From: Armatimonadota bacterium
Lineage (GTDB): Bacteria > Bacillota > Desulfotomaculia > Desulfotomaculales > Nap2-2B
Assembly (NCBI GenBank): GCA_023511535.1
Contig: JAIMBK010000009.1
Span: forward strand, 643-64,642
Length of the DNA: 64,000 nucleotides
Direction of reading: 5' to 3'
Shown: piece after piece, positions 7,755 through 60,502 of the stretch
How the letters are laid out: each line of letters begins with the position of its first letter
Position numbering within the stretch: position 1 is the stretch's first letter
Notes under the pieces: generated by a model
What the model was told of the DNA's origin: nothing
Database searches by the model: none
What the model saw: the letters and a program-made list of their open reading frames with translations, nothing else
Translations under genes and position numbers: made by a program

Positions 7755-8353
7755 AGATTTGCGGTATTCGGGACCTGGAAACCGCTCTTTTTGCCGCCCG
7801 CGCCGGCGCCGACGCGCTGGGGTTCGTTTTCGCCCCCGGCCGGCGGCAGGTCGCCCCGGTGCAGGCGAAAGCGATTATCCGGGCCTTGCCCCCGGGGATT
7901 GTGAAGATCGGCGTGTTTGTCGATGCGCCCCTGCATGAGGTGCAGGAAATCGCCCGTTTTTGCGGACTGGACGCCGTCCAGCTGCACGGTTCGGAATCGC
8001 CCCGGTATTGCCGCCTGGCCGGTCTGCCGGTGATTAAGGCTTTTCGCGTGGGGGCAGGGGACCTGACAGGAGCGGTGGGCAGTTACGACGCTGCGGCCAT
8101 TTTGCTGGATACCTACGTACCCGGGCGGGCGGGAGGGACCGGAAAATCTTTTGACTGGCGCCTGGCCGGGAAACTAAAGTTGAACTACGCCGGAAGAATT
8201 ATTCTGGCCGGCGGCCTGAACGCGCAAAACGTTCAGGAAGCCATCCGGATTGCCCGGCCTGATGGCGTGGACGTAAGCAGCGGGGTGGAAACGAACGGGC
8301 GCAAGGACCGGGAAAAGATCAAAGAATTCATTAAAAAAGCCAAAGAGGGATGA
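7742..8353 (+). CDS. trpF: phosphoribosylanthranilate isomerase
   Basis: VKICGI, GADALGFVF, LHGSESP, LAGGL. Overlaps the trpC stop. Confidence 0.9.
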   Translation: MVWVKICGIRDLETALFAARAGADALGFVFAPGRRQVAPVQAKAIIRALPPGIVKIGVFVDAPLHEVQEIARFCGLDAVQLHGSESPRYCRLAGLPVIKAFRVGAGDLTGAVGSYDAAAILLDTYVPGRAGGTGKSFDWRLAGKLKLNYAGRIILAGGLNAQNVQEAIRIARPDGVDVSSGVETNGRKDREKIKEFIKKAKEG

Positions 8354-9559: not shown

Positions 9560-10357
9560 ATGGCTTCTCTTCACCGGATTGCCGCCAAGTTTGCCGAACT
9601 GGCCGCCCGGAACGAAAAGGGACTGATCACTTACCTGACGGCCGGCGACCCCGACCTGGACACGACTGCCCGCCTGGCCGAAGCAATGGAAAGGGCGGGG
9701 GCGGACTTCCTTGAGCTGGGCATCCCCTTTTCCGACCCCGTGGCCGACGGCCCCGCCATTCAAAAGGCTTCCTTCCGGGCTTTAAAAAAGGGGGTGCGCG
9801 TGGCCGCGATTATCCGGACGGCGGCCCAAATCCGCTCCCGGACCGGCGTCCCCCTGATTTTCATGACCTATTACAACCCGGTTCTGCAGTACGGCCTGGA
9901 AAAGTTCGCCTGCGATGCGGCCGGGGCCGGCGTGGACGGCCTGATCGTTCCCGATCTTCCTTGTGAAGAGGCCGGACCGCTGCTGGAAATAATGGATTCT
10001 TGCGGGCTGGCCTTGATTCCCCTGGCGGCGCCGACCACCACGGAAAGCCGCTTGCAGAAAATCGCCGCCGGCGCCCGCGGGTTTGTTTACTGCGTTTCCG
10101 TCACGGGAGTGACCGGGGCGCGGGAGCGCATCGACACCGATCTGGGGCAGTTTACCGGCCGGGTCCGGAAATATACCCGCTTGCCGGTGGCCGTTGGTTT
10201 CGGCATCGCCGGGCCGCCCCAGGCCGCGCAAACCGCTCCTTTTTGCGACGCCGTGGTGGTCGGCAGCGCAATTGTCCAGATCGTCACCGAACAGGGTTCC
10301 TCGGCGGTGGACGCCGTGAGCAAATTTGTGCGCGAAATAAAATCTGCTTTAAAATAG
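9560..10357 (+). CDS. trpA: tryptophan synthase alpha chain
   Basis: LELGIPFSDPVADGPAIQ, GFVYCVSVTGVTG. The start abuts the trpB stop. Confidence 0.95.
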   Translation: MASLHRIAAKFAELAARNEKGLITYLTAGDPDLDTTARLAEAMERAGADFLELGIPFSDPVADGPAIQKASFRALKKGVRVAAIIRTAAQIRSRTGVPLIFMTYYNPVLQYGLEKFACDAAGAGVDGLIVPDLPCEEAGPLLEIMDSCGLALIPLAAPTTTESRLQKIAAGARGFVYCVSVTGVTGARERIDTDLGQFTGRVRKYTRLPVAVGFGIAGPPQAAQTAPFCDAVVVGSAIVQIVTEQGSSAVDAVSKFVREIKSALK

Positions 10358-12283: not shown

Positions 12284-12415
12284 CCTGAAAGATCAGGCAC
12301 AAAGTTCCCAGGCACAGAGGCACAAAGTAAAATATTCAATTTCCTGGTCACCTCGTTGTTTCTTTGCGCCTCTGGGCCTTTGGGCCTCTGTACCTTGCTG
12401 CTTTTATCCTGAAAA
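12284..12415 (+). repeat. MITE-like inverted-repeat element, copy A1 (GGCACAAAG family)
   Basis: Begins CCTGAAA and ends CCTGAAAA. The left arm (GATCAGGCACAAAGTTCCCAGGCACAGAGGCACAAAG) is imperfectly complementary to the right arm (CTTTGCGCCTCTGGGCCTTTGGGCCTCTG). About 88% identical to the reverse complement of 30166-30281. Confidence 0.7.
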
Positions 12416-12646: not shown

Positions 12647-14059
12647 ATGGTGAAGGATCACCGGGAGCAGGTGCAGGAACACGAACGGGTACAAAGGCAA
12701 GAACAGGAAAAGGAACAGGAACGGGAACGGGAACGGCAGCCGGGACAGAAATATCTCGTTTTGACCTACGGCTGCCAGATGAACGAACACGATTCCGAAG
12801 TAATGGCCGGGATTCTGGAAGAAATGGGCTACCGGCCGGCAAAGCGCAGGGAAGAGGCGGACGTTATCCTGGTCAATACCTGCTGCGTGCGGGAGACGGC
12901 CGAAAACAAAATTTACGGATTGCTCGGGGAGTTCCGCCGGCTGAAAATGAACCGGCCCGGCCTGCTGATCGGCGTAGGCGGCTGCCTGACCCAGCAGGAA
13001 GCGGCGGCCAAAAAAATCCGGGACCGCTTCCCTTACGTCGACCTGATTTTCGGCACGCATAATCTTCCCCGCCTGAGAGAATTGATCGAACAGGCAAAAG
13101 AGAGCCGCCGGACGGTGGTGGAACTGCTGGACCGCTCCGAACCGGCGCCGGAGGGCCTGCCCATCCGGCGGGCCAGCGGCGTTAAAGCCTGGGTAGTGAT
13201 CACCTTCGGCTGCAACAATTTTTGCACCTACTGCATAGTTCCGTACGTCCGCGGCCGGGAGTGCAGCCGGCCACCGGAGAACATCCTGGCCGAGATCAGG
13301 GACCTGGCGGCGCAGGGGTATAAAGAAGTGACGCTGCTCGGTCAAAACGTTAATTCTTACGGCCGGGATCTCCCGGGGAACGTGGATTTTGCCGGACTTT
13401 TAACGGAAGTCAACCAGATTAAAGGGATCGAACGCATCCGGTATACCACTTCCCACCCCCGGGACTTTTCCCCCCGCCTGATCGAAGCGATTGCCCGGGG
13501 CGAAAAGATTTGCGAGCACGTCCACCTGCCCGTGCAGGCGGGAAGCAACCGCGTTTTGCGCATGATGAACAGGGGTTACACCCGCGAAGACTACCTGGCG
13601 CTGGTGGAAAAAATCCGGGAGGCCATTCCGGGAGCAGCGCTTACCACCGACATCATGGTCGGCTTTCCCGGCGAAACGGACGAAGATTTTGCGCAAACCC
13701 TCGATCTGGTGGAAAGGGTCCGCTTTGACAGCGCCTTTATGTTTATTTACAACATCCGCCCGGGTACGCCGGCCGCGCGCCTGCCCAACCAGGTGAAAGA
13801 CGAAGTAAAAAGAGCCAGGATTAAAACGCTGATCGAAAAGCAAAATCAAATCACCAAAGAGATCAATATAAATGAAGAAGGGAAAATTTACCGCCTCCTG
13901 GTGGACGGCGAAAGCAAGACCAACCCCCGGATGTTAAGCGGGCGAACCCGCACGAACAAGCTGGTCATTTTCCCCGGCCCGCCGGAATTGGTGGGAAAGT
14001 TCGTTGATGTAAGGATCACCAGGGGGAAGCTGACTCATTTAGAAGGGATTAGTGAATAG
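12647..14059 (+). CDS. miaB: tRNA-2-methylthio-N6-dimethylallyladenosine synthase
   Basis: UPF0004 N-domain [12 protein letters not shown], radical SAM cluster [14 protein letters not shown]-terminal TRAM domain. The N-terminal roughly 33 aa are low-complexity ([12 protein letters not shown]). Confidence 0.9.
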
Positions 14060-14077
14060 GGAGTAGTGAATAGGGAT
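14050..14077 (+). repeat. tandem 14-nt duplication (two heptamer pairs) spanning the miaB stop codon
   Basis: TAGTGAATAGGGAG (14050-14063) then TAGTGAATAGGGAT (14064-14077). The miaB TAG is at 14057-14059. Confidence 0.8.
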
Positions 14078-18632: not shown

Positions 18633-19589
18633 GTGAAAACACCTGCCCGAGGTGACCTGGATGTGGTAAAAATTAGAATGTGGCCGGATAACGGCACAAA
18701 ACTTTCCCCAAAACCGTCCCCAAAACTGTCTGAGAAAAATAAAACCGAGCCGAAAAAAGACAGTTTGGCCGGCCTGAATGTCCAGGAAATCTTAAGCGAA
18801 TTAAACTCGTTGATCGGGCTGCGGGAAATTAAAAAGCTGATTGGCGAAATCTACGCCCTGGTGGAGATTCAAAAAAGGCGCCAAAAAGAAAAGCTGCCGG
18901 TGGAGCCCCAGGTGCTGCACATGATTTTCAAAGGAAACCCCGGCACGGGAAAGACGACGGTGGCCAGGATTATCGGCCGCCTTTTTAAAGAAGTGGGCGT
19001 GCTGCCGAAGGGGCACCTGGTCGAGGTGGAAAGGGCCGATCTGGTCGGCGAGTATATCGGACATACGGCGCAAAAAACGCGCGAGCAATTAAAAAAGGCC
19101 CTGGGCGGCGTTTTGTTTATTGACGAAGCCTATTCGCTGGCCCGCGGCGGAGAAAAGGATTTCGGCAAAGAAGCGATCGACGTCCTGGTGAAAGGTATGG
19201 AAGACAATAAGGACAACCTCATTTTGATTCTGGCCGGCTACCGGGACGAGATGGACTGGTTCATCGAAAGCAACCCCGGCCTGCGCTCCCGCTTTCCCAT
19301 TCATTTGAGTTTTCCCGATTATACCATTGACGAATTGCTGGCGATTGCCGATTTAATGCTGTTCAGGAGGCATTACGTTTTCTCCCCGGGAGCCAGGGAA
19401 GAACTGCGCCTGCTCCTGGAAAAGGAGGCGGTTACCCACCGCCACAACGGCAACGCCCGGCTGGTCCGCAACTTTATCGAAAAGTCCATCCGGCAGCAGG
19501 CGGTCCGGCTGGTCCAAAAGAAAGAGGTTACCCGGGAAGAACTGATGACTATTACGCGGGAGGATATTTTGCAGGCAAAATTAAATTAG
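18633..19589 (+). CDS. spoVK: stage V sporulation protein K-type AAA+ ATPase
   Basis: Walker A GNPGTGKTT, Walker B VLFIDEAYSL, CbbX/SpoVK-type GYRDEMDWF and NPGLRSRF. Start is uncertain. Confidence 0.8.
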   Translation: MKTPARGDLDVVKIRMWPDNGTKLSPKPSPKLSEKNKTEPKKDSLAGLNVQEILSELNSLIGLREIKKLIGEIYALVEIQKRRQKEKLPVEPQVLHMIFKGNPGTGKTTVARIIGRLFKEVGVLPKGHLVEVERADLVGEYIGHTAQKTREQLKKALGGVLFIDEAYSLARGGEKDFGKEAIDVLVKGMEDNKDNLILILAGYRDEMDWFIESNPGLRSRFPIHLSFPDYTIDELLAIADLMLFRRHYVFSPGAREELRLLLEKEAVTHRHNGNARLVRNFIEKSIRQQAVRLVQKKEVTREELMTITREDILQAKLN

Positions 19590-19668
19590 GAATTGGGGGG
19601 TGGGAATTAGGAATTGGGGTTTGTATTGTACCCCCAATTCCTGGTTCCTGATTCCCAATTCCCAATTA
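19588..19668. repeat. long imperfect hairpin built from GGGAATT / AATTCCC heptamer units
   Basis: G-rich arm GGAATTGGGGGGTGGGAATTAGGAATTGGGG, loop TTTGTATTGTA, C-rich arm CCCCCAATTCCTGGTTCCTGATTCCCAATTCCCAATT. The inner stem AGGAATTGGGG/CCCCAATTCCT is perfect. Confidence 0.8.
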
Positions 19669-19682
19669 CTATCTGTTCAGGG

Positions 19683-24295: not shown

Positions 24296-24320
24296 CCCCC
24301 TCATCCCTCATCCCTAATCC
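24296..24320. repeat. CCCTCAT/CCCTAAT heptamer triplet
   Basis: CCCTCAT CCCTCAT CCCTAAT at 24298-24318. This is the reverse complement of the ATTAGGG/ATGAGGG family. Confidence 0.75.
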
Positions 24321-30165: not shown

Positions 30166-30281
30166 TTTTCAGGGCAAAGGTATAAAGGGGGTACAGAGGC
30201 ACAAAGAAACAGGTGTAACCAGAGAATATTTTTACTTTGTGCCTTTGTGCGTGGGATACTTTGTGCCTGATCTTTTCAGGG
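30166..30281 (-). repeat. MITE-like inverted-repeat element, copy A2 (GGCACAAAG family)
   Basis: Bounded by TTTTCAGGG at both ends (30166-30174, 30273-30281). Its reverse complement aligns with copy A1 along its full length, including the 18-nt identical core AAGATCAGGCACAAAGT. Confidence 0.75.
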
Positions 30282-31498: not shown

Positions 31499-31556
31499 AA
31501 GCACAAAGGCAGAAGGACAAAGGCACAAAGTTAACAGGCATAAAGGGACAAAGCTT
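31499..31556 (+). repeat. degenerate tandem 7-8-mer array (GNNCAAAG type)
   Basis: GCACAAAG GCAGAAG GACAAAG GCACAAAG TTAACAG GCATAAAG GGACAAAG, starting 1 nt after the lepB stop. A partially complementary CTGTGCCCTCTGCGGCTTTGTC lies at 31593-31614. Confidence 0.75.
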
Positions 31557-31631
31557 ACAGCTGCAGAGGCGTTTCATTCTTTCTCAGGTCTTCTGTGCCC
31601 TCTGCGGCTTTGTCAGGTGGGTGGGGGAAAA

Positions 31632-32587
31632 TGGAGAGCCAGTGGTTTGCCGGCCACATGGCCCGCGCGAAAAGGGTCATCAGGGAAAAGCTAAAATTAG
31701 TCGACGTGTTGATTGAGCTGGCTGACGCCAGAATTCCTTTGAGCAGCCGCTGCCCGGCGATTGCAGGCGTGCTGAAGGTCAAGCCCGGCCTGCTCGTTTT
31801 AAATAAGGCCGACCTTGCCGACCCGGAGTGGACCGGGCAATGGGTCAAATGGTTCCGCGCCCGGGGGGTAACTGCCATCCCATGCAATGCAGTGACCGGG
31901 CAGGGCGTGGCAGAAATCCTGCGGGAAATTTCCCGTTTAGCTTCCAGGAAAAAGAAAGAGAAAAAAGCCGGGAAATTCTCCGGACGAAACGATAATCTAC
32001 CATCCCCCGGTTTCCGGCCTCCCGCCGGCGGCCTCAGGTTCCCGACCTCCAACCTCCGACCTCCAACCTCCGACCCCCGGCCTCCAACCTCCATGATCGT
32101 GGGCATCCCCAACGTAGGCAAATCCACGCTGGTCAACCGTCTTGCCGGGAAAAGGGCGGCGCGCACCGGTCAGCTTCCCGGCTTGACCAGGGGGGAGCAG
32201 TGGATCAGGATTGCCGGGAAGCTGGAACTGCTGGATACCCCGGGGGTGCTGTGGCCGAAGCTGGCGGACCGGGAGGTTGCCCTTAAGCTGGCCGTTACGG
32301 GGGCCATTAAAGAGGAGTTGTTCGACGCCGGGGAGGCAGCCGCCTGGGTGCTGCAATGGCTGCTGGAGAACAAAAAAAGCGACCTTGCCGGGCGTTTCGG
32401 TCTGGCGGAGGAATTTTTGGAAATTGAACCCCTTTTGGAAGCGATTGGCAGAAAAAGGGGGTTTCTTGCCATCGGCGGGGTCGTAGACCGCCGGAAAACA
32501 GCTTTGCACATCTTGAAGGAATTCCAGTCCGGCAAGCTGGGCAGGCATACCCTGGAATATCCAGTAAATACAGGGGATAGGGGATAA
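31632..32587 (+). CDS. rbgA: ribosome biogenesis GTPase A (circularly permuted GTPase YlqF/RbgA) with repeat-encoded insertion
   Basis: WFAGHMARAKR, G4 LNKADL preceding G1 GIPNVGKST, DTPGVLWPK. Codons at about 31975-32092 are a Pro-rich low-complexity insert. Confidence 0.88.
32044..32092 (+). repeat. seven tandem RACCTCC heptamers inside the rbgA reading frame
   Basis: GACCTCC AACCTCC GACCTCC AACCTCC GACCCCC GGCCTCC AACCTCC, immediately before the ATG codon of MIVGIPNVGKS. Confidence 0.9.
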
Positions 32588-32625
32588 ATGATAGAGAATG
32601 GGGATGGGGATTTTGGTTTTGGGTG
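32573..32625 (+). repeat. GGGGATA/GGGGATT-type degenerate heptamer array spanning the rbgA stop
   Basis: GGGGATA GGGGATA AATGATA GAGAATG GGGATGG GGATTTT GGTTTTG GG. The rbgA TAA is at 32585-32587. Confidence 0.75.
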
Positions 32626-33382: not shown

Positions 33383-33478
33383 GACACAGAGGCAGAAGAG
33401 ACAAAGGCCCAAAGGTAAAAAGGGACAAAGGAGAGAGGGCCAAAGGCACTGAGAAAGAAAGAGAGAAAGAAAAGTTAA
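33383..33478 (+). repeat. degenerate tandem 8-mer array (purine-rich, ..AAAG/..AGAG units)
   Basis: GACACAGAG GCAGAAGAG ACAAAG GCCCAAAG GTAAAAAG GGACAAAG GAGAGAG GGCCAAAG GCACTGAG AAAGAAAG AGAGAAAG. It starts right after the rnhB stop. Confidence 0.75.
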
Positions 33479-33913: not shown

Positions 33914-34443
33914 AGAACGATGCTCACCCGGTGGATTCCCTGACCAGAGATCCGGTGGTCGCCGGCGAATTAAAGCGCCTGATCCACATCGCCCCGCTGG
34001 AAAAGCTTTTCAACCTGGCCCGTGCCCACTCCCTCTGGCCCCTGGGTTTCGGGCTGGCCTGCTGCGCCATCGAAGGCCTGATGGCGGCCAATATGTCGCG
34101 CTTTGACCTGTCCAGGTTCGGTTACGAAGTGATGCGCGCCACCCCGCGGCAGGCCGACGTCATGCTGGTGGCCGGAACGGTGACCAAAAAAGCGGCTCCC
34201 TTCGTGGTGAAGCTCTACGAACAAATGGCGGAGCCCAAGTGGGTGATTGCCATGGGCAGCTGCGCCATTTCCGGCGGACCTTTTGTGGACTCCTATTACG
34301 TGGTGCCTGGAGTGGACAAACTGATCCCGGTGGACGTCTACATCCCGGGCTGCCCCCCGCGCCCGGAGGCGGTGATCGAGGGTTATTTAATGTTGCGGGA
34401 CAAGATTAAAAACCCGAAGGTGGTGGAACTGGCCCGTGGCTGA
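33904..34443 (+). CDS. nuoB: NADH-quinone oxidoreductase subunit B
   Basis: N2 cluster ligands [26 protein letters not shown]. Confidence 0.93.
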
Positions 34444-34891
34444 TTACCAGTTGCCTGCAGAACTGCTCGAACAACTGAAAGAAAAGTTTCCGGCTCTCGA
34501 AATTACCGGCGATCAGGTGATGATCGCGCCGGCCGGGGACTTGTTCGCCCTGATGCAGGAGTTAAAGAATACTTACGGCTTTGATTTCTTAACCAACGTT
34601 ACGGCGGCCGACTACGCGGACCGTTTTGAAGTGGTGTACAACCTGATTTCCCTGGCGAACGGCTGCCTGCTGATGGTCAAGGTGCCCCTTCCGGACAAAG
34701 AAAATCCCGCCGTGCCTTCCCTTTGCCCGCTGTGGGCGGGGGCCGAATGGCAGGAAAGGGAAGTGTACGACTTGCTGGGAATTAACTTTACCGGGTACCC
34801 GGGCCACCCGACGCGCATCCTGCTGGACGACGGCTTCCAGGGACACCCGCTGCGCAAAGATTTTCAGTGGGAGGGCGGCCGAGAGCCCTAA
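34436..34891 (+). CDS. nuoC: NADH-quinone oxidoreductase subunit C
   Basis: 30-kDa subunit motif [18 protein letters not shown]-like ([22 protein letters not shown]). Confidence 0.88.
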
Positions 34892-34916
34892 AATTAAAAG
34901 AATGAGGATAAGTGTT

Positions 34917-34984
34917 GGAATTAGGGAGTTACTGCCTTTCCCTAACCCCCAATCCCCAATCCCCAATCCCCAATCCCTAATTCC
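34917..34984 (+). repeat. hairpin with (CCCCAAT)n heptamer array between nuoC and nuoD
   Basis: GGAATTAGGGA (34917-34927) pairs with TCCCTAATTCC (34974-34984). The loop carries CCC TAA CCCCC AAT CCCC AAT CCCC AAT CCCC AAT CCC. The complementary strand is a G4-capable GGGGATT array. Confidence 0.85.
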
Positions 34985-35010
34985 TGCTTTTATATGGGAG
35001 AGGTGAAAAA

Positions 35011-36111
35011 ATGGCAATTCAAACGCAAACGTATTTTTTGAACCTGGGACCACAGCACCCCAGTACGCACGGGGTTTTCCGGGTAATTCTGGAGCTGGAC
35101 GGGGAAGTGGTGGTGCGGGCCATTCCGGTGCCGGGCTACCTGCACCGGGGAGTGGAGAAGCTGGCCGAAGCGCGCACCTATACCCAGGTGATCCCGTATA
35201 CGGACCGGCTGGATTACCTGGCCAACATGCTGATGAACTGGGGGTACGTGGAAGCGGTCGAAAAACTGATGGGCATTGAGGTGCCGGAAAGGGCCCAGTA
35301 CATCCGGGTGATCGTGGGTGAGCTTTCCCGGATCGCCAGCCATCTGATGGCCATCGGTTCCTATGCGGGGGACATCGGCGGCTTAACCGGCTTTTTATAC
35401 ACCTTCCGGGACCGCGAGCGGATCCTGGACCTTTTTGAAATGCTCACCGGGTCCCGCATGACCGTCAGCTACTTCCGGATCGGCGGCGTGGCCGACGATT
35501 TGCCGGAGGGGTTTATTCCCCTGCTCCAAAAATTCCTCGCCGACTTGCCGGGGCTGTGCGATGAATACGACGGCCTGATTACCGGCAACGAAATTTTCCA
35601 GGCGCGCACCAAGTTCGTGGGCGTCATCCCACCGGAAAAGGCGATTAACTACAGCTTAAGCGGGCCGAATTTAAGAGGCAGCGGCGTGAATTTCGATTTG
35701 CGGAAAAACCGCCCCTACGGCATTTACGACCGTTTCGACTTCGAGGTGCCGCTGGGGAAAAACGGGGACTGCTTCGACCGGTTCGTCTGCCGGATGAAAG
35801 AGATGCGCCAGTCCGCCCGGATTATCCAGCAGGCGCTGGACGGCCTGCCGGAAGGGCCGATCCAGGCCAAGGTGCCCAAGGTGATCAAGCCGCCTGTCGG
35901 CGAGGCGTACACAGAGATCGAAAGCTCAAAAGGTATCTTTGGCTGCTACGTGGTGAGCGACGGCAGCAACAAACCCTACCGGGTGCACTTCCGCCGCCCG
36001 TCCTTCATCAACCTGGGGTGCCTGGCGGAACTGTGCGTGGGCTGGAAGATCGCCGACGTGATCGCCATCCTGGGCAGCCTGGATATCGTCCTCGGCGAAG
36101 TGGACTGCTAG
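35011..36111 (+). CDS. nuoD: NADH-quinone oxidoreductase subunit D
   Basis: 49-kDa subunit motifs [27 protein letters not shown]. Confidence 0.95.
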
Positions 36112-38595: not shown

Positions 38596-38872
38596 AATAA
38601 TTATTCAGGGACATAGGCATTGAGGCACAAAGGTATAAAGATCAGAGCAGAAAAGTACAGACACTCCAGGGTTGGATTTGCAAAGCAGGGTTGGCAAGTT
38701 CAACCTGGAATTAACAAGTTAGGTTTTCGGTACGGATAGTTAAATCAGGAGTCAGGGAGATCAGGAGATTGCGATGCGAATATCTTTCCGACTGTAAAAG
38801 ATTTCCGGCTAAGGCCCTCCGACCTCCGACTTCTGACATCCGACTTCTGATCATGGAGGTGTTATAAGCTAA
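38596..38872 (+). repeat. 277-nt repeat-mosaic spacer inside the nuo operon (nuoK-nuoL)
   Basis: Contains TTCAGGGACATAGGCATTGAGGCACAAAGGTATAAAGATCAG (related to the left end of copy A2), GGGTTGGA units, and heptamers GACCTCC GACTTCT GACATCC GACTTCT (38821-38848). Confidence 0.8.
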
Positions 38873-43806: not shown

Positions 43807-43902
43807 GATACCACTTCCAAAATTCTTCAGAAGTAATTTCAAGGTGTTTTAATATTTTGGCCAGCTTTTGCGGAGTAACCCGCCGGCTGGGATGATGATG
43901 AA

Positions 43903-44007
43903 CTCAGAAAATACCAGGCACATAGTTTCCCAGGCGCAAGGGCACAAAGTAAATATTCCCGGTCGTCTTTACATATCTTTTTGTGCCTTAGTGCCTCTAT
44001 TTTCATG
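43903..44007 (+). repeat. MITE-like element, diverged copy A3
   Basis: CTCAGAAAATACCAGGCACATAGTTTCCCAGGCGCAAGGGCACAAAGTAAATATTCC ... CTTTTTGTGCCTTAGTGCCTCT aligns with A1 at roughly 80-85% by eye. Confidence 0.65.
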
Positions 44008-44061
44008 CTTTATGGAGGGAACGTAAGTTTCCATAAGCAACTCCCTGGGAAGTTGTTATGT

Positions 44062-45216
44062 TTACACCCCCAGGTACCTGGAGATCACGATCCGCTGGAT
44101 CTCCGAGGTACCTTCGCCGATTTCCAGGATTTTTTGGTCGCGGTAGAATCTCTCCACGTCGTATTCTTTCATCAGGCCATAACCGCCGTGGAGCTGAACG
44201 GCGTGGTTCGCGACGCGGTGGAAAACTTCGGAGCAGACCAGCTTCGCCATGGCGGCTTCCCTGGCAAACGGCTTTCCCTGTTCCCGGAGCCAGCAGGCTT
44301 TATACAGAAGGAGCCTGGCCATTTCGATTTCCGTGGCCATGTCGGCCAGTTTAAAGGCGTTTACCTGGAACTTGCCGATCGGCCGGCCGAACTGGATTCT
44401 TTCCTGGGAGTATTTCAGGGCTTTTTCAAAAGCTCCCTGGGCTCCGCCCAGGCCCATGGCGCCGATGCTCAATCTGCCCCCGTCCAGGGTGGCCAGCATC
44501 TGGTGGAACCCTTCGCCCTTTTTGCCCAGCAGGTTTCCCGCCGGCACCCGGCAGTCTTCGAAGTACAGTTCGCTGGTATTAGAGGCCCGCCACACCAATT
44601 TGCCGTGCATCGGCTTCTGGATAAAACCGGGGGAGCCTTTGCTCACCAGGATGCAGCTCAATTCGTTTTTGCCGTCCGGCCTTTTACCCGTCACCGCCTG
44701 CACTGTGACCACTTCGCTGATGTCTGTGGAGGCGTTGGTAATAAAAATTTTACTGCCGTTGATCACCCACTCGTTTCCTTCCAGCCTGGCGGTGGTCCGG
44801 GAAGCCCCGGCGTCGGAGCCGGCATTGGGTTCGGTGAGACCGAAGCCGGCCAGGATTTCGCCCCGGCACAGCCTGGGCAGCCATTTTCTTTTTTGCTCTT
44901 CGTTGCCGAAATAATAGATGGGGGCAATCCCCAGGGAATTGCCGGCGGCAATGGTAGCCGCCTGGGAACCGTCCACTCTGGCCAGTTCTTCTACGGCGAT
45001 GATATAAGAGATGTAGCCGACATTGGAGCCCCCGTATTCTTCGGAAACAAACATGCCAAACAGGCCGAGTTCGCCCATTTTTTTGGTCAACTCGTAGGAA
45101 AATTCCTCTTTTTCGTCCAGTTCTCTGGCCACCGGGGCGATTTCTTTTTCGGCAAACTCCCGCACCGTTTTTCTTAATAATTCTTGTTCCTCAGTTAATT
45201 CAAAACACAGCGCCAT
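44062..45216 (-). CDS. acyl-CoA dehydrogenase (short/butyryl-CoA type)
   Basis: GLTEPNAGSD, FITNA, C-terminal QLHGGYGLMKEYDVERFYRDQKILEIGEGTSEIQR. Confidence 0.93.
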   Translation of the reverse strand: MALCFELTEEQELLRKTVREFAEKEIAPVARELDEKEEFSYELTKKMGELGLFGMFVSEEYGGSNVGYISYIIAVEELARVDGSQAATIAAGNSLGIAPIYYFGNEEQKRKWLPRLCRGEILAGFGLTEPNAGSDAGASRTTARLEGNEWVINGSKIFITNASTDISEVVTVQAVTGKRPDGKNELSCILVSKGSPGFIQKPMHGKLVWRASNTSELYFEDCRVPAGNLLGKKGEGFHQMLATLDGGRLSIGAMGLGGAQGAFEKALKYSQERIQFGRPIGKFQVNAFKLADMATEIEMARLLLYKACWLREQGKPFAREAAMAKLVCSEVFHRVANHAVQLHGGYGLMKEYDVERFYRDQKILEIGEGTSEIQRIVISRYLGV

Positions 45217-45423
45217 TGAAAAAGTCTCCTTCCGGGGATTAATTCTGGATTAATCCTTTAAGGTTGCCTTTGCCTTTAGTTTATGCAACTTGTAACTTAT
45301 GCAATTTTTGTACCAGGAGATAATATTTATTTTGAGGCAAGCCGGGCGGGGTGATTGTTTACCTTTTCCGGGGGGTATATATTTACCGGATGTTTAAGTG
45401 TATACCCCTGTTAGCATTTAAGT

Positions 45424-45465
45424 TAAAGATCAGGCACAAAGTTTCGCAGGCACAAAGTTATTCCC
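45424..45465 (+). repeat. MITE-like element, partial copy A4
   Basis: TAAAGATCAGGCACAAAGTTTCGCAGGCACAAAGTTATTCC. A 19-nt run, AAAGATCAGGCACAAAGTT, is identical to 12288-12306. Confidence 0.7.
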
Positions 45466-45677
45466 GGGATAATTCCCTTTGTCAATTAGATGTGAGCCTC
45501 TCAAACTTTAGGAGACGCTTTGTGTTCCCCGTTTCTTCCCGTTTCCTCCGGGAGTGTCACAATATTCGCTCCGTGGCCCGATTGGCTCACACCCCCTGTG
45601 CCTTACTACCGCAGTGTTTTTTGGTTTTAATCACCTGTTGGTGCCGTGAATAAGTGGCATCAGGGTTTTTTCCAACC

Positions 45678-50252: not shown

Positions 50253-52160
50253 ATGAAATCATTGATGAAGAAGTTTAAATATACCGGCGAAGAACCCGGC
50301 TCCCGGTATCAGGGCGAGAAGCAGTTGGAGCGCCAGGTCAATGCTCTTTACGGCCTGGTCGCCAATTTATACGGCACCGATAAGCTGGTGCTAAGGGCGG
50401 GAAAGGTCAACGCGTTACAGCTGATGCGCTCGGAACACCTGGGGGAGCGCGTGCTGGCTTTGCAAAGGCTGGTTTTTGAAGATCCCACCATCGAGCAAAT
50501 TCCTGCGGCGAGGGAAATCCCGTCAATTTTAGGGTTGATTGAAGAAGAAATTGCCGAAATTCTAGCCCGGCGAACGGTGGAAGAGGAACTGGAAAGAAAG
50601 ATCAACGAGAAATTGCAGCAAAGGCATAAGGATTACGTACAGGAAATAAAAAACCAGGTACTGAAGGAAAACAGCGGCCCGGAAAACGCCCAAACGTTAA
50701 AAAAGCTGGCTATTTTTGAAAAGATGGAGCAAAAAAAGCTGGCCTGTTCGGCCATGGCCGTTTTGCGCCCGGCCAGTTTTGCGGAAATCGTGGGCCAGGA
50801 GAGAGCGGTAAAGGCCCTTTTGGCGAAAATGGCCTCTCCGTTCCCCCAGCACATCATCCTTTACGGCCCGCCGGGAGTAGGAAAAACAACCGCCGCCCGG
50901 CTGGCCCTGGAGGCGGCAAAAAAAATGGCCGCTTCCTCCTTCCGCGAGGACGCCCCCTTTGTGGAAGTGAGCGGGGCGACTCTGCGCTGGGACCCCCGGG
51001 AAGTTACCAATCCCCTGCTGGGCTCCGTTCACGATCCGATCTACCAGGGGGCCCGTCGCGATCTGGCCGAAAGCGGCGTACCCGAGCCGAAACCGGGCCT
51101 GGTTACCGAAGCCCACGGCGGGGTTCTGTTTATTGACGAAATCGGCGAAATGGACCCCCTCCTGCAGAACAAACTTTTAAAAGTCCTCGAAGATAAACGG
51201 GTATTTTTTGAGTCGTCGTACTACGACCCGCACGATCCCAATGTCCCCCAGTACGTCAAGAAATTATTTGAAGAAGGGGCACCGGCGGATTTCATTTTAA
51301 TCGGCGCCACCACCCGCGACTGCGAAGACATTAATCCCGCCCTGCGCTCCCGGTGCGCGGAAATCTTTTTCGAACCGCTGACCCCGCGGGACATCCGGCA
51401 GATCGTCGCCCAGGCGGCCCAAAAGCTCGGCGTCGCTCTGGAGGAAAAGGTTCCCCAGGTCATCAGCCAGTACACAATCGAAGGCCGCAAGGCCGTGAAC
51501 ATCCTGGCCGATGCCTACAGCCTGGCCTGGTACCGTCAGCAGGGGGAGCAAGCGATCCGGATTACAGTCGATGATGTCTACGAAGTGATCCAGTTGAGCC
51601 GCCTGGTCCTTTGCAATATCCGGAAAGTGTCGGCCGCCCGGGAAGTGGGCCGGATCTTCGGTCTGGGCGTGGCCGGCTACCTGGGTTCTCTAATTGAAAT
51701 TGAGGCCGTTGCCTTTCCCGCCCGGGAAGCGCGGCGGGGGAATCTGCGCTTTAACGACTCTGCCGGGTCGATGGCAAAGGATTCGGTCTTCAATGCTGCT
51801 TCCGTAATCCGGAAAATTTCCGGAAAGGACCTGGCGGATTACGACATCCACGTCAACGTGGTGGGCGGCGGGCGAATCGACGGACCTTCGGCCGGCCTGG
51901 CAATTTTCCTGGCCATCTTAAGCGCTCTGGAGGAGCGTCCGGTTCCCCAGGACCTCGCCGTGACCGGGGAATTGTCCATCCAGGGCCGGGTCCGGCCGGT
52001 GGGCGGCATTCCGGAAAAGATTTACGGGGCGCGCCAGGCGGGGATTAAGAAAGTGCTTGTTCCGGCCGAAAATTTACCCGAGGTGCCTTCTGATTTGACC
52101 GATCTGGAGGTCGTTCCGGTGGCCGCCGTGGAAGAAGTGCTGGCCCATGTTTTAAATTAG
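50253..52160 (+). CDS. Lon-family ATP-dependent protease (LonB/LonC-like, no N-terminal LAN domain)
   Basis: Walker A GPPGVGKTT, Walker B VLFIDEIGEM. C-terminal Lon proteolytic domain with DGPSAGLAIFLA (Ser) and GIKKVLVP (Lys). Confidence 0.82.
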   Translation: MKSLMKKFKYTGEEPGSRYQGEKQLERQVNALYGLVANLYGTDKLVLRAGKVNALQLMRSEHLGERVLALQRLVFEDPTIEQIPAAREIPSILGLIEEEIAEILARRTVEEELERKINEKLQQRHKDYVQEIKNQVLKENSGPENAQTLKKLAIFEKMEQKKLACSAMAVLRPASFAEIVGQERAVKALLAKMASPFPQHIILYGPPGVGKTTAARLALEAAKKMAASSFREDAPFVEVSGATLRWDPREVTNPLLGSVHDPIYQGARRDLAESGVPEPKPGLVTEAHGGVLFIDEIGEMDPLLQNKLLKVLEDKRVFFESSYYDPHDPNVPQYVKKLFEEGAPADFILIGATTRDCEDINPALRSRCAEIFFEPLTPRDIRQIVAQAAQKLGVALEEKVPQVISQYTIEGRKAVNILADAYSLAWYRQQGEQAIRITVDDVYEVIQLSRLVLCNIRKVSAAREVGRIFGLGVAGYLGSLIEIEAVAFPAREARRGNLRFNDSAGSMAKDSVFNAASVIRKISGKDLADYDIHVNVVGGGRIDGPSAGLAIFLAILSALEERPVPQDLAVTGELSIQGRVRPVGGIPEKIYGARQAGIKKVLVPAENLPEVPSDLTDLEVVPVAAVEEVLAHVLN

Positions 52161-52180
52161 GGGTTAGGGGTCAGACCTCC
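52157..52180 (+). repeat. heptamers TTAGGGG TTAGGGG TCAGACC TCC overlapping the protease stop codon
   Basis: TAG 52158-52160 is part of the first unit. Two repeat families (TTAGGGG and GACCTCC) are juxtaposed. Confidence 0.75.
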
Positions 52181-60063: not shown

Positions 60064-60402
60064 ATGGGAGATACGATCACTTTTTTACAGGAACTGAAAG
60101 ATTTGATCGCCGGTTTTGTCCGGGAACGGGATTGGGAGCAGTTCCACACCCCGAAAAACCTGGCCATGTCCATTGCCATCGAAGCCGCAGAGCTGATGGA
60201 AATTTTCCAATGGGGACCGGAAGCAGCGGAAATGGTTCCGGATGACCTGGCGAAAGTCCGGGAGGAACTGGCCGACGTGGTGATTTATTGCCTGGCCATG
60301 GCCAACCGGCTGGGTATCGACTTATCTTCGGCGGTCAAGGAAAAGGTGGCGAAAAACAGCCGCAAATATCCAAAAGAAAAATATTCCGGCCGGTATAAGT
60401 AA
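60064..60402 (+). CDS. MazG-like nucleotide pyrophosphohydrolase (all-alpha NTP-PPase, DCTPP1-like)
   Basis: RDWEQFHTPKNLAMSIAIEAAELMEIFQW ... EELADVVIYCLAMAN. Confidence 0.8.
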   Translation: MGDTITFLQELKDLIAGFVRERDWEQFHTPKNLAMSIAIEAAELMEIFQWGPEAAEMVPDDLAKVREELADVVIYCLAMANRLGIDLSSAVKEKVAKNSRKYPKEKYSGRYK

Positions 60403-60433
60403 GTCGTCGGACGTCAGACGTCAGTCGTCGGAC
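60403..60433. repeat. heptamers GTCGTCG GACGTCA GACGTCA GTCGTCG GAC directly after the stop codon
   Basis: Starts 1 nt after TAA 60400-60402. The reverse complement belongs to the GACNTCY family seen at 38821-38848. Confidence 0.75.
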
Positions 60434-60502
60434 AGGAAAAGGAAACTAAATCCGGGTAAGTGATAGGGCCTTCAAAATTACGCTGTTTTTATCAAATCAG
60501 GT

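Follow-up and report, generated by a model that had tools for sequence, protein, structure and literature searches.

A CCCCAAT heptamer array between nuoC and nuoD of an uncultured Bacillota bacterium: a probable product of replication slippage

Background

Bacterial genomes display an excess of simple sequence repeats (SSRs) with a unit of 7 nt, for which slipped-strand mispairing is the generally proposed mechanism. Repetitive extragenic palindromes (REP) and bacterial interspersed mosaic elements (BIME) are intergenic palindromes of enterobacteria, which occur also between the genes of one operon. In cyanobacteria, the unit CCCCA(A/G)T of the short tandemly repeated repetitive sequence STRR1 was reportedly described in tandem by Mazel et al. 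in 1990. Here we analyse an array of the heptamer CCCCAAT that is located inside the nuo operon, in the spacer between nuoC and nuoD, of an uncultured member of the Bacillota (Desulfotomaculia). It lies in a stretch of 64,000 nt (GenBank assembly GCA_023511535.1, contig JAIMBK010000009.1, positions 643 to 64,642 of the forward strand), to which we will refer as the window and from whose first nucleotide all coordinates are counted. In the reading that we favour, with a probability of roughly 0.7, the array is an STRR-like heptanucleotide SSR that was driven by slippage, has no dedicated function and is tolerated because nuoD possesses its own conserved Shine-Dalgarno (SD) sequence.

Heptameric SSRs are over-represented in bacteria, close relatives differ in the length and sequence of these repeats, and the published studies found no function for them (PMC4692102, PMC4679880). 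For example, Rehm et al. (2015) reported 89 SSRs of the cyanobacterial kind in Nostoc PCC 7120 and assigned no function to them; the longest perfect Nostoc array is situated between pecE and pecF (PMC4692102). A search of the literature yielded nothing specific to such repeats in genomes of the Desulfotomaculum type.

Anatomy of the nuoC-nuoD spacer

The genes nuoC (34436-34891; Pfam Complex1_30kDa, E = 1e-37) and nuoD (35011-36111; Pfam Complex1_49kDa, E = 2e-98) enclose, by direct reading of the sequence, a spacer of 119 nt (34892-35010). An earlier inspection of the letters without database searches (the sequence-only reading) had noticed a (CCCCAAT)n array in this spacer and had equated its heptamer with that of the cyanobacterial STRRs. 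Both observations are confirmed: four perfect units occupy 34947-34974, and CCCCAAT is the unit of STRR1, or GGGGA(T/C)T. The parts of the spacer and its borders are:

34886-34891, plus strand: end of nuoC, CCCTAA (Pro codon and stop), which is the first heptamer unit, in register, in the short alleles of relatives
34892-34938, plus strand: purine-rich left segment of 47 nt with the decayed G-rich heptamers GAATGAG, GATAAGT, GTTGGAA and TTAGGGA
34940-34946, plus strand: degenerate 5' unit CCCTAAC
34947-34974, plus strand: array core, CCCCAAT in four perfect units (minus strand: (GGGGATT)4), read as a recent expansion and present in none of the relatives
34975-34988, plus strand: degenerate 3' units CCCTAAT and TCCTGCT, common to the short alleles; the right arm TCCCTAATTCC of an inverted repeat is at 34974-34984
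34989-35013, plus strand: translation-initiation region of nuoD with TTTATAT, the SD sequence GGGAGAGGTG (34996-35005) and, at a distance of 5 nt from it, the ATG (35011)

The four perfect and approximately three degenerate units stand head to tail, as in a heptanucleotide SSR by definition, and Tandem Repeats Finder (TRF) delimits the array at 34939-34981 (period 7, 6.1 copies, score 65). With up to two mismatches, the 14-mer CCCCAATCCCCAAT has eight matches in the window where 1.8 are expected, a number reached by 0 of 100 shuffles. The left segment opens with AAAATTAAA (34890-34898), which overlaps the stop codon of nuoC, and holds the left arm GGAATTAGGGA (34917-34927) of the inverted repeat.

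The array is no assembly artefact, because an independent assembly (Logan SRR15214128, contig L147, 1-1095) carries an identical nuoC and an identical array. This contig stops exactly at the 3' edge of the array, for which low coverage or copy-number heterogeneity are possible reasons. Look-ups of exact proteins returned no record for NuoD and NuoB and, for NuoC, this one short contig with the identical allele. An open reading frame (ORF) of 34 codons (34902-35006) crosses the array, starting 11 nt past the nuoC stop and ending 4 nt before the nuoD ATG; with no obvious SD sequence and no counterpart in the short alleles, it is probably fortuitous.

The spacer in related genomes

NuoD is matched by proteins of uncultured Bacillota at 97-99% identity (loci L001, L002, L067 and L070) and, further out, by those of a Desulfovirgula sp. 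(94%) and of Desulfofundulus (approximately 84%), and the gene order ylqF-rnhB-nuoABCDHIJKL is common to the window and its relatives. A scan of metagenomes yielded only one further close allele, L081. That nuoC and nuoD are usually close neighbours in other bacteria, as the sequence-only reading had assumed, holds for 78 related loci, where the median spacer measures approximately 28 nt, 59 of the 78 spacers do not exceed 36 nt, and a single one (126 nt) is longer than the 119 nt of the window. The following spacers can be set beside that of the window:

L001, L002, L067 and L081: 44 nt, three degenerate units (short allele)
L070: 48 nt, G-rich, without C-rich array
L003 and L085: purine-rich, without C-rich array
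Desulfofundulus-type and more distant genomes: 22-29 nt, no array

In the 44-nt allele, the CCCTAA formed by the Pro codon and stop of nuoC is followed by two units, by TTCCTG and by the conserved TTTTTATATGGGAGAGGTG-RAARA-ATG. The first of the two units is TCCCTAA, TTCCTAA or TCCCTGA and the second TTCCTAA, TTACTAA or CCCCTAA; L001, L067 and L081 read GAG-CCCTAA-TCCCTAA/TCCCTGA-..., and L002 reads GAG-CCCTAA-TTCCTAA-.... Relatives without the array likewise end nuoC with CCN-TAR (REP*). The initiation region of nuoD is nearly invariant across the window, L081, L001, L002 and L067. Compared with the short allele, the window has four extra (C/T)CCCCAA units, which differ from the resident CCCTAA by one T-to-C transition, and the purine-rich segment of 47 nt (34892-34938). 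No CCCCAAT tandem was found in 1.8 Mb of related loci.

The 47-nt segment, of which no close copy was detected elsewhere in the window or in 146 loci (1.8 Mb), is missing from L001, L002, L067 and L081; the spacers found in L070, L003 and L085, likewise purine-rich, can be loosely aligned with it. Judging from this alignment, the segment may be ancestral and may have been deleted in the L001 group.

Repeats are also present at the nuoC-nuoD junction of other lineages. A GC-rich, heptamer-like insert of 100 nt occurs in the Desulfocucumis-type loci L017, L023 and L026 (approximately 9892-10000), and one or two tandem copies of the hairpin GCTGAACAATTNATAATTGTTCAG precede position 10001 in two Clostridium genomes (L073 and L075). 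These repeats are independently acquired.

Proposed origin of the array

The favoured reading is carried by two observations. In the sister species the site is occupied by a three-unit CCCTAAT/TCCTAAT array, which is in register with the CCC-TAA end of nuoC, and in the lineage of the window four copies of a variant of this unit, with TAA changed to CAA, make up a perfect core amid older degenerate units. Polymorphism in length and sequence among close relatives, combined with a perfect core between degenerate units, is characteristic of SSRs, and because the core is flanked by degenerate units the slippage appears to be recent. The expansion would have taken place by slipped-strand mispairing during replication. 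Since the 1.8 Mb of related loci contain no CCCCAAT tandem and the resident CCCTAA is only one transition away, the identity with the unit of cyanobacterial STRR1 would represent convergence on a heptamer composed of a C-run and A/T, not common descent. Once expanded, the array would form a C-rich and largely unpaired part of the nuo transcript without dedicated function, and it would be tolerated because nuoD starts at a strong, conserved SD sequence of its own 11 nt downstream. The nuoC-nuoD spacer as a whole is best explained as being filled by two heptamer arrays that form a degenerate inverted pair, with the CCCCAAT array as its C-rich arm; from the sequence, the G-rich arm of this pair seems to have decayed and the C-rich arm to have been recently expanded.

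Predicted folding, G-quadruplex potential and regulatory signals

The perfect 11-bp inverted repeat described in the sequence-only reading does exist and brackets the array, although it is displaced by one base from the position given there. The same reading had placed its stem approximately 25 nt ahead of the ribosome-binding site of nuoD and had envisaged a C-rich loop presented on this stem in the mRNA. The distance needs correction, as the right arm ends 11 nt before the SD sequence and 26 nt before the ATG, and the loop is not supported by folding predictions: the probability of the 11-bp stem is approximately 0 in native contexts of 146 nt and 301 nt, at 37 as well as at 60 °C. Only in an isolated 68-mer is this stem the minimum free-energy fold (-14 kcal/mol), and in the native context a proximal 8-bp hairpin, UUAGGGAG/UUCCCUAA, is preferred instead with a probability of approximately 0.8. 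Folding energies are no better than those of shuffled sequences for the spacer RNA with its flanks (146 nt, 34880-35025, z = -0.48) and for the minus-strand DNA (91 nt, 34905-34995, z = -0.57). By these predictions, the inverted repeat of the nuoC-nuoD spacer lacks the stable stem-loop of REP-like palindromes or of miniature inverted-repeat transposable elements (MITE). A structured RNA or DNA element as the principal explanation was rejected on these two z-scores and on the disuse of the 11-bp stem in its native context.

The minus strand at 34946-34971 reads GGGGATTGGGGATTGGGGATTGGGGG and is, as had been proposed, a canonical G-quadruplex (G4) motif, with runs of G5/G4/G4/G4 and 3-nt ATT loops. 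Just two motifs in the 64 kb, this one included, possess four runs of at least four G, and G4 motifs in general are not enriched in the window (7 versus 4.6 +/- 2.0). The G-rich strand is the template of transcription; an RNA G4 in the nuo mRNA is impossible, because the mRNA carries the C-rich strand. To judge from the positive GC skew, the G-rich strand would also serve as template of the leading strand and be the less exposed of the two. The oligonucleotides (GGGGATT)4 and (GGGGATT)3GGGG form an antiparallel G4 in K+ with T1/2 values from above 74 °C to above 95 °C, and strands containing CCCCAAT form i-motifs under acidic conditions only (PMC4692102). The biophysical experiments on G4 and i-motif formation that the sequence-only reading had recommended are already published for identical oligonucleotides (PMC4692102).

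A scan of 34892-35010 revealed no terminator-like site (GC-rich hairpin with T-run) and no promoter-like site (-35/-10). Rfam covariance models gave no match at the gathering score in the 64-kb window, and in E-value mode the sole match was a chance long non-coding RNA (E = 0.21). In its composition, the spacer is the strongest stretch of C over G in the whole nuo operon (29 C versus 7 G in 78 nt), and the C-rich part is mostly unpaired in predicted folds. This composition is the one expected of a Rho utilization (rut) site, for which an untranslated and unstructured stretch of approximately 70-80 nt, rich in C and poor in G, would be needed; short alleles lack the feature. The final unit, UUCCUG, is able to pair weakly with the SD sequence of nuoD; predicted accessibility of that sequence is 0.44 in the long allele versus approximately 0.2 in short alleles, a small and model-dependent difference. 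The idea of an anti-SD element was rejected on this weak difference and on the behaviour of the array before nuoL, which contains CCUCC and displays neither SD pairing nor excess structure (z = +0.5). The dedicated regulatory, processing or pausing element that had been suggested for the spacer thus finds no support: fold, terminator, promoter and Rfam signals are lacking there, the expanded array is missing from close relatives, and it is one of many period-7 arrays found in both orientations.

Heptamer arrays in the window and in related genomes

Arrays of period 7 occur at seven places in the window versus 0.0 in shuffles, and ten of the 57 TRF rows for the 64 kb have this period. Outside the nuoC-nuoD spacer the following were recorded:

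1050-1074: AGGGGTT
14044-14076: 14-nt double unit
19577-19672, plus strand: palindromic pair of heptamer arrays in the spacer after an AAA-ATPase gene (19585-19667: GGAATTG/GGAATTA facing CCCAATT)
24298-24320: CCCTCAT
32040-32093, plus strand: ACCTCCA/ACCTCCG, in frame inside ylqF/rbgA
32572-32611, plus strand: AGGGGAT, overlapping the ylqF stop codon, with the G-rich strand in the sense of the mRNA
38813-38850, plus strand: CCTCCGA/CTTCTGA between nuoK and nuoL, at a distance of 23 nt from the ATG of nuoL
52157-52171: TTAGGGG
60399-60434: CGTCAGA

The units are many, and nearly all arrays are confined to spacers or extend over stop codons. All genes that flank them are on the plus strand, and the sense of the mRNA is G-rich in about half of the arrays and C-rich in about half. 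The nuoC-nuoD array is the sole perfect CCCCAAT array in the 64 kb, and approximately six others use related C3-4W3 units. Period-7 arrays are a property of this genome and not a device specific to nuo. The stop codon of the upstream gene is overlapped or abutted by an array at 1050-1058, 14057-14059, 32585-32587, 34889-34891, 52158-52160 and 60400-60402; units of the stop-abutting arrays contain TAA or TAG, and three copies close all reading frames.

In a survey of 80 related loci (approximately 1.4 Mb), period-7 arrays proved patchy by lineage; some lineages of metagenome-assembled genomes have them in abundance, with up to seven per 21 kb in L078, and there are none in the loci of cultured Desulfofundulus, Desulfovirgula thermocuniculi and Desulforamulus. 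The favoured units are lineage-specific, GAATTCT, GACTTCT, CAGGAGA and GTGAGAG being among them. Of the 66 arrays counted in the window and the 80 loci together, 52 or more are non-coding, which is a lower bound, as greedy ORF calling labels some arrays, including that of nuoC-nuoD, as coding through spurious antisense ORFs. In L078, a metagenome-assembled genome of the Peptococcaceae, an array of GGGAATT/GGGAATC, the unit described for Xanthomonas, is situated upstream of nuoA (8294-8336).

Repeats have also entered a protein of the window. YlqF/RbgA (31595-32587) has an in-frame insertion of approximately 30 amino acids (…PSPGFRPPAGGLRFPTSNLRPPTSDPRPPTS) just before the P-loop, encoded largely by the array at 32040-32093; the insertion is shorter in L070, and L003, L005, L009 and L018 have none. 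The nuoK-nuoL spacer (38596-38872, 277 nt) is densely filled with short repeats of the GGCACAAAG type, ATCAGGAG and CCTCCGA/CTTCTGA, and its heptamer array is identical in L002. A family of period 8, GGCACAAAG / CTTTGTGCC, recurs in many spacers, sometimes as inverted pairs; copies are also located upstream of nuoA and in the nuoK-nuoL spacer, and the recorded positions are:

12300-12400, 30200-30260, 31499-31553, 33413-33450, 38600-38640 and 43930-43960: copies of the period-8 family

The otherwise colinear L002 lacks a 1.8-kb segment of the window (43811-45592), which carries an acyl-CoA dehydrogenase gene on the minus strand, and a 92-nt piece of L002 matches the left edge of this segment in reverse orientation. 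An origin of the segment as a mobile element was rejected, as it encodes acyl-CoA dehydrogenase and not a transposase.

Alternative explanations

Several observations weigh against slippage as the whole explanation. The allelic series may also be read in the other direction, with a loss in the relatives in place of an expansion in the window, and four species hold the short array at exactly equal length, for which constraint is possible. About half of the arrays in the clade have a reverse-complement partner within 300 nt, and within a genome the arrays share a favoured unit family (in the window C3-4 + W3, used by approximately seven arrays), as slippage acting locally and independently would not predict. 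Moreover, the elements at nuoC-nuoD and at 19577-19672 have the 5' AAAATTAAA and the order of their parts in common, which hints at the copying of a discrete element. The array could accordingly go back to a dispersed palindromic element of heptamer arrays, similar to REP/BIME or MITE, one copy of which reached the spacer by insertion or gene conversion and had one of its arms lengthened by slippage later; lineage-wise decay would then have left both arms in the window, the C-rich arm only in the L001 group and the G-rich arm only in L070. We regard this origin as possible but doubtful, and it is compatible with later slippage. The element at 19577-19672 has the matching architecture and unit family, being a near-perfect palindrome with a predicted hairpin of approximately 35 bp (-48 kcal/mol, z = -5.9), and inverted pairs are common in the clade. 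The 9-mer AAAATTAAA, of which only three copies exist in the 64 kb, opens both elements beside the upstream stop codon and ends in the 19577 element 2 nt before the TAG of the upstream gene (19587-19589). Both elements share a 17-nt stretch, CCCCAAT(T/C)CCTAATTCC, their colinear alignment scores 57 versus 17.6 +/- 3.1 for shuffles, and the GGAAAATGGGGGGTAGG of L070 resembles the left arm of the 19577 element. The shuffled null ignores repeat structure, though, so that a similar architecture alone could yield a score of 57, and the comparison rests on two copies. Furthermore, the 47-nt left part is without a close copy in the 1.8 Mb, the spacers of L003 and L085 that align loosely with it, purine-rich and ancestral, argue against insertion, terminal inverted repeats or a target duplication are not evident, and neither a transposase nor a REP-associated tyrosine transposase (RAYT) was identified.

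Functional readings of the array fare less well. A cis-acting RNA element of the nuo mRNA, i.e. a rut site, a platform for a single-strand RNA-binding protein or an anti-SD reservoir, could tune nuoD-N versus nuoABC, in keeping with the unpaired C-rich composition, the weak pairing and accessibility of the SD sequence, and the conservation of the terminal unit and the block around the ribosome-binding site in five genomes; in Nostoc, heptamer repeats near start codons affected reporter expression (bioRxiv 10.1101/2022.06.06.494920). We nevertheless consider such an element unlikely, as no close relative has the expanded array, the arrays of this genome are G-rich and C-rich in the sense of the mRNA with similar frequency, the array next to nuoL displays neither SD pairing nor structure, and the differences in accessibility are small and depend on the model. 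Still less probable is the pausing of RNA polymerase or of the replisome at a template-strand DNA G4 within the operon, as proposed in the sequence-only reading. The motif is canonical, a T1/2 above 74 °C for (GGGGATT)4 in K+ would outlast thermophilic growth temperatures (PMC4692102), and in the species that Rehm et al. studied, the repeats show a preference for the non-coding strand and for positions upstream of ORFs. Yet G4 motifs are unenriched in the window, most heptamer arrays of the genome and the clade are devoid of G-runs, the G4-capable core is missing from close relatives, the GC skew suggests that the G-rich strand is the less exposed one, and Rehm et al. could not identify a regulatory role. 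A broader proposal would see in the arrays of this lineage of Desulfotomaculia a repeat system that propagates actively and is specific to a unit family, the Firmicute equivalent of the STRRs, with a module consisting of a palindromic array pair at the 3' ends of genes, with the nuoC-nuoD copy altering the ratio of NuoABC to NuoD-N through RNA structure, Rho loading or a thermostable template-strand G4; this we hold to be improbable as well. Horizontal acquisition of a true STRR1 from a cyanobacterium, finally, is effectively refuted by the allelic series, although the four core units match CCCCA(A/G)T: the flanking genes and their synteny (ylqF-rnhB-nuoABCDHIJKLMN) are those of Desulfotomaculia, the site in the sister species holds CCCTAAT/TCCTAAT, one transition from CCCCAAT, foreign flanking DNA is absent, and the neighbours are Desulfovirgula, Desulfofundulus and other Bacillota.

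Comparison with known systems

The cyanobacterial STRR1 of Calothrix PCC 7601 and Nostoc PCC 7120 resembles the nuoC-nuoD array in its tandem CCCCAAT = GGGGATT unit and its G4 and i-motif potential, and the arrays of the window further in their mostly intergenic position on either strand and in that some copies lie within operons and some inside ORFs. By contrast, the host here is an uncultured member of the Bacillota, in which the unit probably arose locally from CCCTAAT. STRR1 would be expected in some hundred dispersed copies of one unit per genome; the 64 kb of the window contain a single perfect CCCCAAT array, beside arrays of other units. The GGGAATC repeats of Xanthomonas (Rehm et al. 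2015) are similarly intergenic heptamers of a G-run and A/T that vary extensively between close relatives, and like the arrays of the clade they often form inverted pairs able to fold into hairpins; they belong, however, to another phylum, and the units of the window are mixed.

The TAACTGA repeats of marine Beggiatoaceae, cyanobacteria and Bacteroidetes (MacGregor 2015, PMC4679880) are spacer heptamers beside start and stop codons, too. Both TAACTGA and CCCTAAT contain stop codons, so that three copies close all frames, and in both cases close relatives have shorter spacers without repeats (PMC4679880). The window has many units in mixed orientation, whereas a single unit, TAACTGA, dominates there and is strongly biased in its orientation upstream of starts (PMC4679880). 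With REP and BIME, the window shares the position inside an operon, the inverted-repeat architecture and, in the sister element at 19577-19672, strong folding. It differs from them in that no consensus is shared by many copies, the arms are tandem heptamers and no RAYT transposase was identified, and for the nuoC-nuoD copy itself no stable hairpin is predicted.

As a tolerated microsatellite in an operon spacer, the single locus matters little. It does offer a clean evolutionary snapshot, in which the three-unit precursor is preserved in sister species and a single-transition variant was amplified to four perfect copies beside a decayed inverted arm. STRR-like arrays, including the very unit of Nostoc and Calothrix, would arise convergently in Bacillota that are uncultured and probably thermophilic, and in related Desulfotomaculia each lineage has heptamer families of its own, many of them arranged in inverted pairs. 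This gives a wider taxonomic base to the old questions why bacteria favour 7-nt units and why lineages amplify their own unit family. The kind of repeat is already known from Mrazek's heptamer SSR excess, the STRRs, the GGGAATC repeats of Xanthomonas and the TAACTGA repeats of Beggiatoaceae; the novelty lies in the host lineage and in the reconstruction of how a CCCCAAT array came into being.

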